Part shown: positions 225 to 14,049 of the stretch, one piece after another
Numbering within the stretch: position 1 is the first letter of the stretch
Layout: each line of letters starts with the position of its first letter
Origin: Candidatus Omnitrophota bacterium
GTDB lineage: Bacteria > Omnitrophota > Gorgyraeia > Duberdicusellales > 4484-171
Assembly (NCBI GenBank): GCA_016935525.1
Contig: JAFGQU010000004.1
Coordinates: 65,314-129,313, forward strand
DNA length: 64,000 bases
Direction: 5' to 3'
Notes under the pieces: model-generated
Seen by the model: the letters and a program-made list of their open reading frames with translations, nothing else
Told to the model about the DNA's origin: nothing
Databases searched by the model: none
Made by a program: the position numbers and the translations under genes

Positions 225-1619
225 TCATACCGCAACTTCTTCAATACGGACCGGATAATGCCCCTGGCGGGTATGATAAAACTCAAGGAACTCCTTCGGA
301 GAAAGGGACGGCAAAAGAGCATAGCGTTCTTTGATCTTTTTCTTGAATTCGTGGTGATACCGGATAAACGCCCCCATGTCCTGAGGAAATTCTTCCTCGT
401 CTACCCCCAGGAAGATACCCTGATGACGGGCATAGTTGAATATTTCTTCCCATTGATCGGGCCGGGAGATCCCGATCCCGCGCACTCCGTTAGAAAGCAA
501 AAACACATAGATATCATCGAAATCACCGTGCCGTTTTATATATTTTTTTACCGTCTCCATCGAGCTGGAAGTATTGAACGCCAGCCAGAACGGTACCGAC
601 CGGGTGAGGACCGACCATAACGGCTCCAGCAGCGCGAAACATTCGATCAGGACCCGCCGGGAAACGAAATCGTTCTTTCGGTACCACCAGCGGTAGAAAT
701 CGGCGGTAAACGCGCTGATATCTTCAGGATGGTCAAAAATGATCGTCATTACTTTATATCCGTTCTCTTTCGCGTAACGGATGATATCTTCGTGGAGCTC
801 GGGAGAAAACCCCCATTCGGCTTCTGGATACCGCCCGGTCGTCTCCGGCACGTCCCATTTTTTGAGAGGACTCCCCTGCTCTTTTAAAAATCTGCCCACC
901 CGGTCGCTTCCCTGCAGATATTCCCGATCCGAGACGTCACCTAATCCACCCACCTGAAAAAAATGGTGATCGGAAAACCGGGTTTTTTCCCATTGATAGG
1001 TGCACTCACAGACAAAGAGTGTCCCGCCGGGAATAAGATTGGTTTTTATGAAATGTTCGTACGTTTTTCCCAGCGTCCGGCGTTTCATCCGGAAATACCC
1101 CATCTTGCTCACCATCAACCGGTCCTGGACCGGATCGTGCATCTGATGCATGATCAGTTCGGGATTATGACGGTGAATCTCCTCCGCAACAGGCCGCCCC
1201 CACTCGGCGTCTTGTTTCAAGTCATCCGGGCCCATATCGCGTCGAATCGCTACCAGGAACGTCTGAGGAAGCCAGGGTATATCCAGGGCCGCACAGAGAT
1301 GGACCACCGCCCCGTTGGAAGAACCGATCATCATCCCGGGATACTGCTTGACCGGATACTGGCTGACCGCATGCCGAGACATCTCTTCGGCCTCGATCTG
1401 TGCGATCTTGTGATGGTCGATCCCCTCCATCGCTCCCACCCAGGTATAGATCCTCTGACGGGTTTTTTCCGGTAAGGAATTGAGAATACCACCGATAAAT
1501 CCCGGCAGTTTAGGCGGTAGGCCGATGGCTTCTGCTTCACGTTTGAGATAGTAACTCAAAGAATAAAGCATCGAAGAGGTAGAATCGAAATCGGGGATAT
1601 ACTCTTTGGCTCTGGACAT
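225..1619 (-). CDS. conserved hypothetical protein (464 aa), function unknown
   Basis: Long intact ORF with coding-like composition. No motif I can assign. Lies 7 bp upstream of the ldh stop on the same strand. Confidence 0.45.
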   Translation of the reverse strand: MSRAKEYIPDFDSTSSMLYSLSYYLKREAEAIGLPPKLPGFIGGILNSLPEKTRQRIYTWVGAMEGIDHHKIAQIEAEEMSRHAVSQYPVKQYPGMMIGSSNGAVVHLCAALDIPWLPQTFLVAIRRDMGPDDLKQDAEWGRPVAEEIHRHNPELIMHQMHDPVQDRLMVSKMGYFRMKRRTLGKTYEHFIKTNLIPGGTLFVCECTYQWEKTRFSDHHFFQVGGLGDVSDREYLQGSDRVGRFLKEQGSPLKKWDVPETTGRYPEAEWGFSPELHEDIIRYAKENGYKVMTIIFDHPEDISAFTADFYRWWYRKNDFVSRRVLIECFALLEPLWSVLTRSVPFWLAFNTSSSMETVKKYIKRHGDFDDIYVFLLSNGVRGIGISRPDQWEEIFNYARHQGIFLGVDEEEFPQDMGAFIRYHHEFKKKIKERYALLPSLSPKEFLEFYHTRQGHYPVRIEEVAV

Positions 1620-3677: not shown

Positions 3678-4382
3678 TTATATCATTTCTAAAAACAAGC
3701 TAGATTTCTCTTTAGAAATAATCTTTCCATCCTGAAGAAAGATCGTACGGGATGCCTGTAACCCCAGTTTAGGATTATGAGTCGCAACGATTATCGTCAA
3801 TCCGTCTTCTTCGTTCAGTTTTTTGAAAATAGAAAATATTTCCTGCGCGCTTTTAGTATCAAGGTTTCCCGTCGGCTCGTCGGCAAGAAGCAGTTGAGGG
3901 GAAACCGCAAGCGCCCGGGCAATCGCTACCCGTTGACGTTCGCCGCCCGATAACTGTTTAGGCAGATGATTGATCCGGTGGCCTAATCCTACCCTTTCCA
4001 TAATCTCAAGAGAATGTTTCCGTTCTTTCGTCATACGGGAAAAATGGAGCGATAATTCGACATTTTCCAGAGCGGTGAGGCTAGGAATAAGTAAAAATTC
4101 CTGAAAAATAAAACTGATAATTCCCCTACGGTATTTCACAAGATCGTTCTCTCGGGCACAAGACACCTCATTCCCCAATACTTCTAACCGGCCACAACTC
4201 ACACTGTCTAAACACCCCATAAGGTCCAATAATGTCGTTTTCCCCGAACCGGACGGCCCCATTAATGAGACAAACTCACCGCATCGTATTTCAAGATCGA
4301 TATTGTTGACCGCATAGATTTCTTCAGCAAATAATTTATATATCTTAGTAAGATTATTCGCTTTGATAACCGGGGTACTCAT
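3678..4382 (-). CDS. ABC transporter ATP-binding protein (MacB/LolD-type)
   Basis: Walker A GPSGSGKTT, ABC signature LSGGERQRVAIARAL, Walker B LLLADEPTGNLD. Confidence 0.85.
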   Translation of the reverse strand: MSTPVIKANNLTKIYKLFAEEIYAVNNIDLEIRCGEFVSLMGPSGSGKTTLLDLMGCLDSVSCGRLEVLGNEVSCARENDLVKYRRGIISFIFQEFLLIPSLTALENVELSLHFSRMTKERKHSLEIMERVGLGHRINHLPKQLSGGERQRVAIARALAVSPQLLLADEPTGNLDTKSAQEIFSIFKKLNEEDGLTIIVATHNPKLGLQASRTIFLQDGKIISKEKSSLFLEMI

Positions 4383-4384
4383 CT

Positions 4385-5569
4385 TTACTCTCCTCGCCTT
4401 ATCGCTTCGATCGGGCGCATCGACGATGCTCTTAATGCCGGATATATTCCGGCAACTAAACCCATAATAATTGCCCCCATAAATGAACTCAGCAAGAGGC
4501 CACCGGTAATAACCACCAGATGACCGCTGGGAGCGTAAGGCAGGATACCGCGTAACATATGTTCCACCAATCTGGCGGCGATTATCGCAAAAAGATTACC
4601 CATTATTCCTCCCCACACACAGATCAAGGTAGTCTCAATCCAGATAATCCGGAAAATATCAAACCGCGATGCGCCAATGGCTTTCATCACTCCGATCTCT
4701 TTTGTCCGCTCGAATACCGACATGAGTATCGTATTTACCACACCGATCACGGCAACAAATATTGCGATGATCGCTATAGAATTGGTCATCACTTTTGCCG
4801 AAGATATCAGATTGAAGATCGTACCGCGTACCTCGGCCATACTTATTACCTGAATCCCGGGTTCATCATAGAGATCTTCTTCAAAACCGGCAATCTGGCT
4901 TATTTCTTTCAATTTTATGCCGATACCGGTGAGCTGGTCCGGTAAACCGAAAATATTCTGGGCAGTGACAAGCGGTAAAAAAATAAGCCCGTCATCCTGA
5001 GTCCCGGTACGTTCGAAGATACCGGCGACCGTAAGGATTTTTTCAATACCCGGGATGAATATTTTATCGCCGATCGAACGTTGTTCGAATTCGGCCGCTT
5101 CATATCCCATAATCACTTCTTCAGCATCGTCTTGAGAAAACCAGTTTCCCGATTTGAATTTTATCCACGGTTTTAAATCAAGAAACGAACGGTGTATGCC
5201 CATATAGAGAGCCAGTCCTCCCTGCCCGTTGTTTTTATCAGGATCATACACGGTATGGACCAGTTGAGGGGTAATCGCCGCGACCCGGGGATCATTGATA
5301 ATCTTGCTATACACCTCTTGATCCATATACCTCAGGCCCCCGCCGCCTTTAAGCATCAGCGTTGCCGCCTCATAAGGGCATCCTTTCGCTGTAATCAACA
5401 CCTGAAATCCCATTTTATCAATATCGCTGCGTAATCCCCGTTGATATCCTTCATCAAAACCCATAAGGCTCACCAGTACCGCGACTGCGACTCCCACCCC
5501 GCCGACAGTCAAAAATGACCTGATCTTTTTCCTTTGTAGATTCTTGAAGGCGATTGCGATAGATTTCAC
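4385..5569 (-). CDS. ABC transporter permease, FtsX/MacB-like
   Basis: N-terminal TM helix, a large periplasmic domain and a C-terminal FtsX-type 3-TM bundle. Its stop abuts the ATPase start. Confidence 0.8.
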   Translation of the reverse strand: MKSIAIAFKNLQRKKIRSFLTVGGVGVAVAVLVSLMGFDEGYQRGLRSDIDKMGFQVLITAKGCPYEAATLMLKGGGGLRYMDQEVYSKIINDPRVAAITPQLVHTVYDPDKNNGQGGLALYMGIHRSFLDLKPWIKFKSGNWFSQDDAEEVIMGYEAAEFEQRSIGDKIFIPGIEKILTVAGIFERTGTQDDGLIFLPLVTAQNIFGLPDQLTGIGIKLKEISQIAGFEEDLYDEPGIQVISMAEVRGTIFNLISSAKVMTNSIAIIAIFVAVIGVVNTILMSVFERTKEIGVMKAIGASRFDIFRIIWIETTLICVWGGIMGNLFAIIAARLVEHMLRGILPYAPSGHLVVITGGLLLSSFMGAIIMGLVAGIYPALRASSMRPIEAIRRGE

Positions 5570-5937
5570 TGTAATTCTACTCCTTGGCCGATCAGAGACG
5601 TATTTCCGGTACGGGCACTTACCGTGCCCTGGACAACCACCTTTTTCCCGACCATCTGGGGAATAGCGAATCCCGAAGGTTTAATATCCACATAGATCTC
5701 TCCGGTCGTATCGTTAAGATTAAACCAACATCCCGACGGGCATTCCCGTACGATCTTCCCGGAAACCGTAACGGTCTTACCGCTAAGTTCTCCCGGATTA
5801 CTGAGAATATTTCTTATCGGTACCGAAGTATACTCTGTAATCGGTTCACCGAACGATTCCGAAGAAACATTCGTAGTACACCCTATAATCAAAATTATAC
5901 CTGTAAATAAAGCTAAAAGATACGTTACCTGTTTCAT
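5566..5937 (-). CDS. small lipoprotein with predicted OB-fold and CPSGC motif
   Basis: Lipobox LIIGC. Beta-rich 123 aa protein with a CxxxC pair. Has 4-nt overlaps with both neighbouring genes. Confidence 0.5.
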   Translation of the reverse strand: MKQVTYLLALFTGIILIIGCTTNVSSESFGEPITEYTSVPIRNILSNPGELSGKTVTVSGKIVRECPSGCWFNLNDTTGEIYVDIKPSGFAIPQMVGKKVVVQGTVSARTGNTSLIGQGVELQ

Positions 5938-6584
5938 GGCCTCTCTCCTTTTTCCACTTTTCCTATACGGCTATTTTGCATACCGTCAAAATAAAACGCG
6001 TCTAAAAGAATAAGATTTTTCTTGATCCCCCGCAACGTATTGAAAAAATCTTCAGTCTCTCCCGGAGTCGGTTGTTTAATTTTTTCCAGCATATCCTGCC
6101 GATATAAGTCTTCTAAACCAAGACCGATGAATTGTTGAGTAAATGATTCATCCCGAAAGTACCGCGCCTGGGGCGAAGATATTCTTTGATAATAAAAATC
6201 TACTATGTTTCCCTCAAGATCGGTCGCAAGAATGATCTGTATCCCGCCGTAAGCCCCTTTTTGATTTATCCCGTGTACCCGGCCGATGACCTCTTTCCCT
6301 TTCAATACATCATAATAGGCATACGGGACATCTTCGGCTTCATAGACCGGATCCAACCGGTCATTAAGAAGCGATTCTACTTTCTTCTTTAATCCTTCTC
6401 GCCCGGCACCCTCTATTGTATGGAAGCTGGTCTTATATCCGGTACTTTCAGGGAAAATACGGCGGAGGTCCCGCTCGGGATCGTTTAAAGTGCATCCTAC
6501 CGCGGCACTGGCCGAATAAGTGATCAACAGGATACCTAAACTAATAAAGACCGTGATTACAGATTTGAAGGAATTAACCGCCAT
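5934..6584 (-). CDS. secreted FMN-binding-domain-like protein
   Basis: Signal peptide or lipobox (AAVGC). The central GINQKGAYGGIQIILATDLEGNIVDF segment resembles the FMN_bind fold. I did not find the canonical flavinylation motif (S/T)GAT. Confidence 0.4.
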   Translation of the reverse strand: MAVNSFKSVITVFISLGILLITYSASAAVGCTLNDPERDLRRIFPESTGYKTSFHTIEGAGREGLKKKVESLLNDRLDPVYEAEDVPYAYYDVLKGKEVIGRVHGINQKGAYGGIQIILATDLEGNIVDFYYQRISSPQARYFRDESFTQQFIGLGLEDLYRQDMLEKIKQPTPGETEDFFNTLRGIKKNLILLDAFYFDGMQNSRIGKVEKGERP

Positions 6585-7584
6585 AATAATAATATTGCAC
6601 TAACACGCTTGTATCAGCCGGCTCATCTACACGATTGAAATCATGGACTAATGCCGCTCTTAACGTAATATTCTCATTTACACGATACGCCAACCCCAGA
6701 CTGATAAGAGAATCATCCTGATTTTGTTCAGCCAGATCGTGAGCGAACGATTGAAACTGTATTTGAAAACTCAGATTTTGATTGCGCGGTAACGTATAAT
6801 CGTATTCTAAAAGATACCCTAATACCTCATCAGAATCATCCTGTCCATACGCTATTTCCCCTTTCACCAGGGAAGCCCCCATCAGTAATTGGCCGTCAAC
6901 ACCGATCCGTCTCTTCGATACCGCAGATTCCGAAAGAAGTCGGTTATGAGGAAACGTCTGCATCCCTTTTACATCGATCACGTCGCCATAGAGGATTGAG
7001 AACCCGTATTGCACATTTTCCGTCGGCGGCGTACCGACCCGCGCGCTCATTAAAAAACTTCTATCATGACGCCTCAGGCTCATTCCCGAACCGACTCCCA
7101 GAGCAAGTTTATAATCATACTTTCTCAAAAAACCTTCCAACGCCATACCCCAATCTTTCTTAAACCCGATATTCAACGGAGCTAACGTCTGTAACACAGT
7201 CCCGTGAGTATCGATTACGGGTTCAAGCCCGAACGCCGGATCGAAATGGCCGATTCTTAAATTCATTCCGTATCCCAATCGATATTGCATCCAGGCATTA
7301 TGCAGCTCGACGGCCCAGGCATCACGAGAATCCTCCAAGCTGTCATAAGAAAAACGTACCTGAAGGTCGGTGGTAAGAAAATCACCGTATTCACCGGAAA
7401 ACTTTCTAAAATCTTCAAAACCAAAAGAATTAGCCAGGGTACTGCTCTTTCCCGTCCATTGCTGTTGACGGCTGTATCCGCCGATAAGGTTGATCTCTTT
7501 ATTAAAAATCCGTTCCGAACCAGATACGGTATCTCCATTTATAAACCAGGCTGCCACCATAACAAATAACACGAAGGATCTCAT
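6574..7584 (-). CDS. outer-membrane beta-barrel protein
   Basis: Signal peptide followed by an alternating hydrophobic, aromatic-rich beta-strand pattern. Has a 4-nt overlap with csoR upstream. Confidence 0.45.
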   Translation of the reverse strand: MRSFVLFVMVAAWFINGDTVSGSERIFNKEINLIGGYSRQQQWTGKSSTLANSFGFEDFRKFSGEYGDFLTTDLQVRFSYDSLEDSRDAWAVELHNAWMQYRLGYGMNLRIGHFDPAFGLEPVIDTHGTVLQTLAPLNIGFKKDWGMALEGFLRKYDYKLALGVGSGMSLRRHDRSFLMSARVGTPPTENVQYGFSILYGDVIDVKGMQTFPHNRLLSESAVSKRRIGVDGQLLMGASLVKGEIAYGQDDSDEVLGYLLEYDYTLPRNQNLSFQIQFQSFAHDLAEQNQDDSLISLGLAYRVNENITLRAALVHDFNRVDEPADTSVLVQYYYYGG

Positions 7585-7865
7585 AACCGATGTAATTTTT
7601 GGACCACTCCGATAAGCTCTTCGATCTTCTTTTTCTTGTTTTTTTCCGCTTTACCGCGAAAGGTATCTACCACGCACGATTCGATATGGGTATGCAATAT
7701 CTTTTCGGCGACCCGATACAGCGCGTTGATCGAAGCATGGATCTGATTGACGATATCGATACAATATTCTTCTTTTTCGATCATCCGCTGGACACCTTTC
7801 ACCTGTCCCTCAATACGCCGCAACGCGGCAAGTTGTACCGTATGAGTCGTTTTTTGTTTCATCAT
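7581..7865 (-). CDS. csoR: CsoR/RcnR-family metal-sensing transcriptional repressor (copper-type C-H-C ligand set)
   Basis: 94 aa predicted helical-bundle protein. It carries Cys (EEYCID) and the HTHIESC motif, giving the x-C-H-C copper-ligand pattern of CsoR. Confidence 0.75.
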   Translation of the reverse strand: MMKQKTTHTVQLAALRRIEGQVKGVQRMIEKEEYCIDIVNQIHASINALYRVAEKILHTHIESCVVDTFRGKAEKNKKKKIEELIGVVQKLHRL

Positions 7866-7886
7866 CGATCTCCCCCTTTTATTTGT

Positions 7887-8429
7887 TTATTCGTCCACTA
7901 TTAATTTTGCCTTCATCTGGCTATGCCCCCGGCCACAGTATATCGAACATAAAACAGGAAATTCTCCGGTCTTATCGGCGACGAACTCGATTTTTTTCAC
8001 CTCACCTTTCTTCACCGTTGCGTTAATCCCATATTCTCCGATATACACTCCATGCGGGACGTCACGCGAGGTAGCCATCAGGCATACGATATCCCCTTTA
8101 TTGACAATTATATCCTGGGGTTCATATCCGAACCGGTAAGCTTGAAACGGTATTTCTTTTATCTTGGAAATATACTTTTCGGGATCTTCTTTGAATTTCC
8201 CGATACACATCGGGCAGCAGAAATAATACGTTTTACCTTTATAGGTATAAGAATATTCTTTCTGAGCCTCACCGCCCATTACCGGACAGATGCCCAAATC
8301 ATTCTCCGCCGACGGCGTCCCCATCTGATGAGCCATCCCCTGCCCCATCTCTTCACCATGATGATCTTGAGCCGTTACGCTTAAAGCCCCCAGACAAAAC
8401 AAGCCGATTAAAAAAATAACCTTTTTCAT
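7887..8429 (-). CDS. secreted YHS-domain + CuA-like cupredoxin copper-binding protein
   Basis: Signal peptide. YHS/TRASH motif CPVMG...YYFCCPMC. C-terminal cupredoxin region with H...[12 protein letters not shown], which matches the CuA pattern CxxxCGxxHxxM. Confidence 0.7.
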
Positions 8430-8444
8430 ACATATCCCCCCTAC

Positions 8445-8480
8445 GCAAGCCTATCATACCCCCTGGGGGTATGTCAATGA
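8445..8480 (-). promoter_or_regulatory. sigma70-like promoter overlapped by a perfect CsoR-type operator palindrome (ATACCCCC-N-GGGGGTAT)
   Basis: On the sense (minus) strand the sequence reads TTGACA-taccccc(a)gggggtatga-TAGGCT, then AGGGGGA RBS, then ATG at 8429. The 8+1+8 palindrome lies at 8456-8472. Confidence 0.55.
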
Positions 8481-8511
8481 CACTTTTTAAAAAATAATAT
8501 ACAAGGAAGGG

Positions 8512-9156
8512 TCAATGCTCATGACGGATACTTTCAGGGTTTTTCACAAAAAAAAGAGGAAAGACGATATCGCTTACGCAACAGGGCACCCATACCGCAA
8601 TAAATAGGAATAAGAATATCGCGGCATAAGCAAAAAAACTCACCGTCGCTCCTTTCGCCATGAGAATATGGAACAACGAAGCTGCGGTACTGACCAGAAC
8701 GTGGGCAAAATGAGGGAATTTGGTCGCGGGGTTGATATAGGCGATCATAATACCGATAAGCGCCATAGTCGTAATCAGCCACCATCTCTCGAGAAATCCG
8801 ATATGAGCATGCCGGTGCGGCATATCCAACAATACTTCTCCTATATAAGGCATGATCGAATCGCTTACCGTCGCAACTCCGATCGAACCTACATAGCCGA
8901 TTACCAACAACACAAAAAGGTTACAGTGACGCCGGTTATGGGGACAGACATGACGGTGGTACATCGAAGCGGTCACAAGAGCACTGAGGAGTACGTGAGC
9001 CGGATGGAATACGTAAAAGAATTCGTAAGAGACCTCGGGAGTGATGTTACGTAAGAATGCGATCAACCCGATGCCTAATAACGCTCCTAATGCCGTAAAC
9101 GGAGCATGATGACGTAATTCTTTGACGATCTCTCGGAACATAACGGTAGTGCTCAC
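8512..9156 (-). CDS. His/Cys-rich integral membrane protein (putative metal handling)
   Basis: 5-6 TM helices with clustered His/Cys (HRHVCPHNRRHC, MPHRHAHIGF, VPCCVSD). Its start overlaps the glgP stop. Confidence 0.45.
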   Translation of the reverse strand: MSTTVMFREIVKELRHHAPFTALGALLGIGLIAFLRNITPEVSYEFFYVFHPAHVLLSALVTASMYHRHVCPHNRRHCNLFVLLVIGYVGSIGVATVSDSIMPYIGEVLLDMPHRHAHIGFLERWWLITTMALIGIMIAYINPATKFPHFAHVLVSTAASLFHILMAKGATVSFFAYAAIFLFLFIAVWVPCCVSDIVFPLFFVKNPESIRHEH

Positions 9157-13491: not shown

Positions 13492-14049
13492 TCAGCCTGA
13501 TTGTTCAGGAAGATATTTAAACTGATAGGTCGCTTTTGAAAGTTTTCTAAAGAGGATCTCGTCCTGGATGAATCCGGGCGAGGTATCGATAAGTTTCGAA
13601 AGCCCTTCCCAAAATCCAAACCAGCCAAGCGGCATAAGCACGATCGCCGACAGCTCTCTGGCCAACGTATTTAAGAACTTAAAGTAGGTAGCTAACGTTA
13701 AAAACGTCAATGAACCGATCCCGATAAGTACAAATATCGTACCGCGCAGGCGTGTGCTTCTTAATTCTTTTTTCTTCTGTAAATAACCGTGGAGAAAATG
13801 TTTTTTTAACCGCTGGGTGACCATCCGTTCCGATTTCTCATCTTTCAGGTCCAGCGGCGCGTATATAGTAATGATAAAATCCCCCCGGCGGGTCTCCCGG
13901 TACCGTTTTTTCAGTTCGGTTATGAAATCGCCCGATACCGTCCGTTCATTTAACGGCCGGGGATCGAAATCAGAGAACACGTCGTCCCAGGTATCGATCA
14001 CAATCGCGATTTCGCCGAGATCTTTTATGCGTTGGATGACTTCACTCAT
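13492..14049 (-). CDS. hypothetical membrane-anchored protein
   Basis: Soluble N-terminal domain followed by two C-terminal TM helices. No recognisable motif. Confidence 0.4.
   Translation of the reverse strand: MSEVIQRIKDLGEIAIVIDTWDDVFSDFDPRPLNERTVSGDFITELKKRYRETRRGDFIITIYAPLDLKDEKSERMVTQRLKKHFLHGYLQKKKELRSTRLRGTIFVLIGIGSLTFLTLATYFKFLNTLARELSAIVLMPLGWFGFWEGLSKLIDTSPGFIQDEILFRKLSKATYQFKYLPEQSG

Follow-up and report, generated by a model that had tools for sequence, protein, structure and literature searches.

The stretch of DNA analysed here, referred to as the window, comprises 64 kb (64,000 nucleotides) of a contig that is part of a Candidatus Omnitrophica metagenome-assembled genome (MAG). 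It contains an operon in which a predicted CsoR-type copper sensor is encoded together with a porin-like protein, a protein of RnfG/NqrC fold, an OB-fold lipoprotein, a MacB-type ATP-binding cassette (ABC) permease and an ABC ATPase; the genes for the last five are hereafter called the cassette. In the list of open reading frames (ORFs) of the window, eight ORFs on the minus strand (8429 to 2694) follow one another head-to-tail and encode, in the order of transcription, products of 180, 94, 336, 216, 123, 394, 234, and 320 aa (Table 1). The initial annotation had placed the first seven on one strand in the order YHS-cupredoxin, csoR, outer-membrane (OM) beta-barrel, FMN-binding-like protein, OB-fold lipoprotein, FtsX/MacB-like permease, and ABC ATPase, with an ArsP-like permease gene 21 bp downstream. 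These positions, the strand, and the order all agree with the ORF list.

The junctions between the first seven genes had been described as overlaps of 4–11 nt. This holds for four of the six, which overlap by 4 nt (csoR and the porin-like gene, the 216-aa and 123-aa genes, the 123-aa and permease genes) or by 11 nt (the porin-like and 216-aa genes), but not for the other two, where gaps of 21 nt (YHS-cupredoxin gene and csoR) and 2 nt (permease and ATPase genes) were found. The stop codon of the ATPase gene is followed after 21 nt by the gene for the ArsP_1-family permease. Because of these overlaps and short gaps, the arrangement fits a single transcription unit with eight genes behind one promoter, and the sole sizeable upstream gap is located at 8430-8511.

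Table 1. Features of the operon and its upstream region in the window.
Feature	Position	Strand	Evidence
CsoR-type predicted operator, ATACCCCC-N-GGGGGTAT	8456..8472	.	perfect 17-bp palindrome filling the promoter spacer
Promoter, read by eye	8448..8477	-	-35 TTGACA (8477-8472), 18-nt spacer, TG-extended -10 TAGGCT (8453-8448)
CsoR-family predicted Cu(I)-sensing repressor, 94 aa	7581..7865	-	Trns_repr_metal 7.5e-25
Probable porin-like OM beta-barrel, 336 aa	6574..7584	-	signal peptide; weak porin matches
Extracytoplasmic RnfG/NqrC-fold protein, 216 aa, no flavinylation site	5934..6584	-	predicted fold
OB-fold lipoprotein, 123 aa, lipobox Cys20, motif E65-C66-P-S-G-C70-W71	5566..5937	-	DUF4920
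MacB-type (type VII ABC) permease, 394 aa	4385..5569	-	MacB_PCD 1.3e-19, FtsX 3.1e-18
ABC ATPase of LolD/MacB/FtsE type, 234 aa	3678..4382	-	ABC_tran 6.8e-31
Secreted YHS domain fused to CuA-type cupredoxin, 180 aa	7887..8429	-	Pfam YHS 8e-12, COX2 1e-6
ArsP_1-family permease, 320 aa	2694..3656	-	ArsP_1 7e-65

The promoter in this upstream gap was missed by a simple promoter scan because its -10 element agrees at just three of six positions. Its spacer is occupied by the palindrome, whose arms reach 9 nt when the flanking bases are included (8455-8473). A perfect CsoR-type operator in the only promoter-like region upstream of the operon had been reported initially, and 8456-8472 is indeed the single perfect copy in the 64 kb. 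When up to three mismatches were allowed, three matches were obtained compared to 0.31 expected; those at 258-274 and 13879-13895 are not near promoters of related genes and were taken as chance matches. The promoter frame TTGACA-TACCCC..GGGGTA-TGnTAnA is repeated upstream of csoR in five related loci (L003, L017, L019, L024, and L026 of the survey described below).

The 94-aa protein matched the Pfam family Trns_repr_metal (DUF156) with 87.6 bits against a cut-off of 22.8, and its best matches in the Protein Data Bank (PDB) were the CsoR structures 4adz, 4m1p, and 2hh7. Its residues C35, H60, and C64 align with the Cys/His/Cys Cu(I) ligands of Streptomyces lividans CsoR (4adz), which corresponds to the x-C-H-C fingerprint. 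The GC-rich inverted-repeat operator over its own promoter, another mark of the CsoR branch, is provided by the 8456-8472 palindrome. The family match and the ligand triad bear out the original csoR call, and copper-responsive regulation of the operon is, judging from these sequence features, highly probable.

The 394-aa permease has the architecture of type VII ABC systems, with MacB_PCD at residues 18-232 (profile positions 1-203 of 207) and FtsX at residues 264-385, and its cognate ATPase is encoded by the adjoining 234-aa gene. The earlier assignment of an FtsX/MacB-like permease and an ABC ATPase is confirmed by these Pfam matches. The best PDB match of the permease was MacB (5gko, 1e-24, end-to-end), followed by LolF, YtrF, LolE/C, and FtsX. 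In NCBIfam, it scored far below the cut-offs for LolCE, MacB, and FtsX (LolC/LolE equivalog TIGR02212, 79.7 bits with a cut-off of 362), and the 234-aa ATPase matched the LolD, DevA, and MacB nucleotide-binding domain models, all below their cut-offs. Just past the first strand of the periplasmic domain, the permease bears C64 in the motif KGCP. This residue is 100% conserved among 77 homologues, and the alignment with MacB 5gko contains no Cys at its position. M72 and M82 of the same domain are conserved in 96% and 93% of the sequences, respectively (this and the following percentages refer to about 80 homologues). Cys317 in TM3, likewise conserved, was also considered as a metal ligand but rejected, because MacB carries a Cys at the corresponding site and this residue is a superfamily feature. 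The MacB class is known to work by mechanotransmission, in which ATP-driven movement in the cytoplasm is passed on to the periplasmic domain and the substrate is not carried across the inner membrane (PMC8277102).

The 336-aa protein reached 21.6 bits against a porin cut-off of 27. Among 28 members of its family, 13 weakly matched Porin_4 and 10 weakly matched Porin_O_P, and no match to OEP/TolC was found in these members or in the window protein. The family profile gave no sequence match when compared with all PDB chains, and the profile of the 216-aa family likewise gave nothing, even at lenient thresholds (E 10 and E 1 were used for the 216-aa and 336-aa profiles). H113 and H127 of the 336-aa protein are conserved at 99-100%, W145 at 99%, and M168 at 95%.

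In its predicted structure, the 216-aa protein adopts the RnfG/NqrC fold, and on this model it represents an orphan family with this fold. When 1.84 billion representative proteins were searched with the family profile, 396 clusters (at 50% identity) were obtained. C31 and H104 are 100% conserved, and all 83 sequences of the family share the near-invariant motif AAVGC[TSDE]LNDPDRD around C31. The AVGC sequence is compatible with an atypical lipobox, with cleavage by signal peptidase I that would leave a near-N-terminal Cys, or with an uncleaved RnfG-like anchor. The description of this protein as FMN-binding-like was upheld for the predicted fold only. Pfam FMN_bind matched neither the window protein nor 50 diverse family members, the flavinylation motif [S/T]GA[S/T] is missing in 82 of 83 members, and an invariant Arg (R185) was located by eye near the expected position of the flavinylated Thr. 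No ApbE gene was present in the neighbourhood listing around the cassette. A covalent flavoprotein was rejected on the missing flavinylation motif, and a flavin redox role is unlikely; the Borrelia lipoprotein BB0365 also has this fold but no flavin. In a distant branch of the family (P0276-P0290 and similar, ~490-545 aa), the protein is fused to a C-terminal DUF3179 domain. C31 is retained in this branch, and H104 is replaced. Reviews place DUF3179 among selenoprotein families.

The 123-aa protein matched DUF4920 with 26.5 bits (cut-off 25), and the DUF4920/BOF (YgiW-like) match was accompanied by a predicted OB fold. The prior designation as an OB-fold lipoprotein with a CPSGC motif is supported with respect to the fold and the first Cys, since C66 is invariant, as is W71 (both 100%), but the second Cys (C70) is conserved in only 73%. 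LolA- or LptE-like identities were rejected for both the 216-aa and the 123-aa proteins on the basis of the predicted folds, which also do not correspond to other well-characterised families. Each extracytoplasmic component of the module retains invariant Cys, His, or Met residues.

The distribution of the cassette was surveyed by a pattern-plus-tblastn search of one genome per GTDB species, which identified 316 genomes with a relative of the 216-aa protein in about ten phyla. The best 80 loci were inspected together with loci from exact-protein look-ups, and the window proteins were used in phmmer searches. The carriers (at least 316 species-level genomes) include Omnitrophota, Planctomycetota, Lentisphaerota, Acidobacteriota, Desulfobacterota, Cloacimonadota, and Elusimicrobiota, and most of them are anaerobes of sediments and groundwater. 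The core order of porin-like protein, 216-aa homologue, MacB-type permease, and ATPase was found in all complete loci. In almost every one of these, the porin-like gene immediately precedes that of the 216-aa homologue, and the flanking genes vary from locus to locus. No HlyD or OEP match was found in the cassette proteins or among the conserved flank families of the 80 loci; this comparison covered the cassette proteins and flanks and not the remaining genome. Within the cassette, the MacB-type exporter is thus without MacA or TolC partners, as initially annotated.

The loci fall into two subfamilies and a reduced form. In subfamily A (L011-L070), the OB lipoprotein gene is located between the 216-aa and permease genes; it includes Omnitrophota, Planctomycetota, Lentisphaerota (with Victivallis vadensis), Acidobacteriota, Cloacimonadota, Desulfobacterales, Eisenbacteria, and Poribacteria. 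Subfamily B (L071-L090; Aminicenantes, Desulfobacteraceae, Elusimicrobiota, NC10, and a Burkholderiales MAG) has no OB gene. In 17-18 of its 20 loci, a secreted protein of ~160 aa is encoded, nearly always immediately upstream of the porin-like gene. This protein shows a weak YtkA match (3e-4) and carries the motifs G-x-K-C, MPSMxGAHDSG, and VMPGxWE. In Atribacterota (L007-L010, L092, and L093), the OB lipoprotein, the permease, and one or two ATPases are encoded in loci with no porin-like or 216-aa gene. Here, the order in most loci examined is CopA (HMA P-type ATPase), YHS, OB lipoprotein, permease, ATPase, ATPase, and DUF1573, while in some loci either CopA alone or YHS alone precedes the OB gene. 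In L018, L025, L043, and L059 as well as in Atribacterota loci, two ABC ATPase genes stand in succession, and such pairing suggests heterodimeric nucleotide-binding domains in some versions of the cassette.

The identity of the permease to the window protein is 61-75% in subfamily A, 61% in Atribacterota, and ~50% in subfamily B. As judged from these sequences, this is unusually high for a MacB-type permease across phyla. Together with the varying flanks, the high identity suggests strong constraint and horizontal spread, and the cassette appears to move as a unit between unrelated flanks. In a Sedimentisphaerales MAG, the cassette is immediately followed by a fragment of a phage integrase (L001, 10916-11113), which fits horizontal movement of the cassette. 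Genes for Rrf2 regulators, cysteine synthase (PALP), HcyBio (homocysteine synthesis), and NifS/NifU/ThiF are repeatedly found at a distance of a few kb from the cassette in L003, L005, L014, L016, L020, L053, L058, L065, and Atribacterota loci. These neighbours may be a matter of lineage synteny, or copper handling may be linked to thiols and sulfur.

The same survey connects the cassette to copper. Upstream sequence was sufficient for 51 loci of subfamily A (OB-containing), and in 35 of them csoR is the gene immediately preceding the porin-like gene. Of these 35 loci, 22, from several phyla, carry ahead of csoR a 17-bp palindrome of the form ATACCC(C)-N3-5-GGGGTAT, which was detected in none of the 34 csoR-less loci. 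Strict matches to this palindrome in the 1.19 Mb of fetched sequence are almost all located upstream of csoR. The co-occurrence of the gene set with csoR, which the initial annotation had made a point on which its proposal would stand or fall, is therefore observed beyond the window. The csoR control implied by that annotation would apply to two thirds of the OB-containing loci and not to the remaining third or to subfamily B, where csoR is absent. YHS or YHS-cupredoxin genes are optional neighbours (L014, L018, L033, L044, and L054), and csoR, YHS, CuA-type, and ArsP-like genes surround the cassette in Omnitrophota, Planctomycetota, and Lentisphaerota. Considering these neighbours and the CopA-YHS cluster of Atribacterota, the copper context appears to have arisen independently at least two times. 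The copper assignment seems strongest for the branch that includes the window cassette.

We propose that the operon encodes a copper-derepressed, ATP-powered envelope module that removes periplasmic Cu(I). We assign this reading a probability of about 0.5; its regulatory part is well supported, and its transport part is a model derived from the sequences. At low copper, CsoR would bind the palindrome in the promoter spacer and block transcription. Binding of cytoplasmic Cu(I) at C35/H60/C64 would free CsoR from the DNA, so that all eight genes would be transcribed together. Because MacB-type proteins act by mechanotransmission, the module most likely acts on periplasmic copper. This Cu(I) could originate from a P-type ATPase encoded elsewhere, from the terminal ArsP-like permease, or from outside the cell, and would be captured by the thiolates of the OB lipoprotein (C66, usually with C70). 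In subfamily B, the Met/His-bearing YtkA-like protein might serve as the capturing chaperone, and in the window genome the secreted YHS-CuA protein may also capture Cu(I). ATP hydrolysis in the cytoplasm would then move the periplasmic domain of the permease, with Cys64, M72, and M82, and pass the copper outward. The RnfG-fold protein (C31 and H104) and the porin-like barrel (H113 and H127) would form the exit at the outer membrane. This pair, whose genes are consistently neighbours and are translationally coupled by their 11-nt overlap, would replace MacA/TolC or CusB/CusC.

A more specific version of this proposal is tentative, and we regard it as rather doubtful in its full form. According to it, the module would be a novel envelope-spanning metal route in which Cu(I) is relayed from Cys64 of the permease to Cys66 of the OB lipoprotein and on to C31/H104 of the 216-aa protein, and leaves via H113/H127 of the barrel. 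Such a route would have neither a membrane-fusion protein nor a TolC-type channel, and in it the RnfG/NqrC flavin-binding fold would have taken on a new role as an adaptor or plug that handles metal.

Several observations weigh against copper removal by the module and its proposed parts. A membrane-fusion protein or TolC may possibly be encoded elsewhere in the genome. The probable barrel assignment of the 336-aa protein rests on porin matches that are below threshold. C31 of the 216-aa protein may be a lipidation site, and it would then not be a ligand. In the OB motif, 27% of the members lack the second Cys. csoR and its operator are missing from 16 of the 51 OB-containing loci and from all 20 subfamily B loci, so the core may not be copper-specific everywhere. 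Finally, the case is built from sequences, and nearly all carriers are MAGs.

The absence of csoR from these loci is also compatible with a general envelope exporter or extractor of a non-metal substrate, for which copper would merely be the inducing signal in one branch. The substrate could be a lipid, a copper-damaged lipoprotein, a thiol/sulfur compound, or a copper-chelating metabolite; the recurrent Rrf2, cysteine synthase, and homocysteine-synthesis neighbours point in this direction, and known MacB-family members handle lipoproteins, peptides, and haem. The invariant polar residues of the 216-aa protein (R38, D39, E82, D85, Q108, Q116, Q133, R185, and K189) resemble a ligand or cofactor pocket more than a simple metal relay, and the distant branch of this protein is the one fused to DUF3179. 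However, two independent arrangements place the module among copper genes, Cys or Met/His motifs occur in the accessory proteins of both subfamilies, and the permease has an invariant, subfamily-specific periplasmic Cys. We consider a non-metal substrate unlikely, though with a weight that should be kept in mind.

An improbable alternative is a copper-delivery machine resembling NosDFY-NosL, in which the periplasmic domain of the permease, driven by ATP, would transfer Cu(I) from the lipoprotein to the periplasmic YHS-CuA cuproprotein. This protein, the secreted product of the first gene, aligned with the Thermus ba3 CuA domain (2cua, 8e-14) with all five ligands of the set H-x34-C-x3-C-x3-H-x2-M kept, and its best NCBIfam matches were to the C-terminal CuA domain of NosZ. 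Moreover, a lipoprotein combined with an ABC mechanotransducer parallels NosL and NosDFY (PMC7558416). In contrast, a YHS or cupredoxin gene was found near the cassette in only ~5 of the 80 loci, whereas the OM protein is nearly universal; the cassette contains no NosD or ABC-2 type component, and CsoR derepression at copper excess fits detoxification and not supply. The limited conservation of the CuA protein also argues against an extracytoplasmic redox system, an option raised by the initial annotation, in which a flavin on the RnfG-like protein, together with the CuA protein, would oxidise Cu(I) or reduce Cu(II). Given the missing flavinylation motif with the invariant Arg nearby, the failure of all family members compared to match FMN_bind, the lack of an ApbE gene in the region covered, and the flavin-free fold of BB0365, such a system is very improbable.

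Of the known systems, MacAB-TolC and other type VII members (LolCDE, FtsEX, HrtBA, and DevBCA) are similar to the cassette in combining a MacB periplasmic core and an FtsX C-terminal domain with an ATPase of LolD/MacB/FtsE type, and by analogy cytoplasmic ATP hydrolysis would be expected to drive periplasmic work. In contrast to MacAB-TolC, the ATPase of the cassette is a separate polypeptide, and no MacA-like adaptor or TolC-like channel is present; instead, a porin-like barrel, an RnfG-fold protein, and an OB lipoprotein were found. The permease further differs from MacB by its extra invariant periplasmic Cys and by its control by a metal sensor. CusCFBA provides another parallel, as the proposed removal of periplasmic Cu(I) across the outer membrane would also involve a small OB-type metallochaperone. 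CusF is a small beta-barrel. However, the RND pump, CusB, and CusC families matched no cassette protein, and the module would use ATP rather than proton-motive force, Cys ligands rather than Met/His/Trp, and CsoR rather than CusRS.

The csoR-copZA operons of Bacillus, Listeria, Streptomyces, Mycobacterium, and Leptospira (background in PMC11442865) share with the window operon the repressor family, the ligand triad, autoregulation, and a GC-rich palindrome that overlaps the promoter. Their regulated genes encode a P-type ATPase and CopZ, whereas those found here encode an envelope ABC cassette. The 216-aa gene differs from RnfG/NqrC genes in its location outside any Rnf or Nqr operon, as well as in the missing FMN_bind match and flavin-attachment motif. 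With NosDFY-NosL, the cassette shares periplasmic copper handling driven by an ABC ATPase with a Cu(I) lipoprotein, as proposed here, and a NosZ-related CuA domain is encoded in the operon. It differs in being of type VII and not ABC-2, in having an OM protein and no NosD or NosL homologues, and in being derepressed by copper excess.

Full-text literature searches, whose coverage left out most subscription journals, yielded no description of this cassette layout and no mention of DUF4920. The earlier statement that the arrangement lies outside known cop/cus/cue layouts is consistent with this result. Two broad reviews (PMC7558416 and PMC8277102) list no MacB-type copper system, and the only heavy-metal link suggested in the 2021 review concerns YbbAP (PMC8277102). 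A mention of FtsX in a paper on Corynebacterium CopRS was dismissed, as it refers to the cell-division gene and not to a copper link. From the comparisons above, the cassette is probably an uncharacterised type VII ABC system whose set of partners is new and whose substrate is probably a metal; it is widespread and highly conserved.

Copper leaves Gram-negative cells, according to the textbook view, through P-type ATPases at the inner membrane and CusCBA-type RND pumps at the outer membrane. If the proposed function is correct, the module would add an ATP-driven, adaptor-free copper route that is built on a MacB-type motor, and it would be the first member of the type VII superfamily with a defined metal role found in the searched literature. 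It would also give a function to three families that are currently without one, namely the 216-aa RnfG-fold proteins, the DUF4920-like OB lipoproteins, and the porin-like proteins. Copper-sulfide chemistry matters in the sediment and groundwater habitats of the carriers, and the conserved pair of csoR and operator represents a ready-made copper-responsive switch. Since cultured strains exist for one carrier species, Victivallis vadensis, the idea is testable.

The first and last genes of the operon are accessory and lie outside the conserved core. The block delimited by the initial annotation is accordingly retained for its core genes, but not for the YHS-cupredoxin and ArsP-like permease genes. 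A stand-alone binuclear CuA protein under the control of CsoR is unusual for an Omnitrophota genome; it may act as a copper sink or as an electron carrier. The 320-aa ArsP_1 permease showed weak matches, below the cut-off, to the NCBIfam models SaoE and SO_0444 (Cu/Zn efflux), and it is possibly an inner-membrane metal exporter. An ArsP-like permease gene was found near the cassette only in L001, L032, and L065.

Two further ORFs of the window may be mentioned. A 464-aa ORF with no Pfam family on record (225-1619, minus strand) is located downstream of a lactate dehydrogenase gene. A 214-aa membrane protein, encoded on the minus strand at 8512-9156, gave no match in Pfam or NCBIfam, and none of the 90 related loci was found to encode it. 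Its gene ends 83 nt upstream of the operon start, and the protein is rich in His and Cys (HxxH, RHxC, and CC motifs), so that, on its sequence, it could be another metal transporter.

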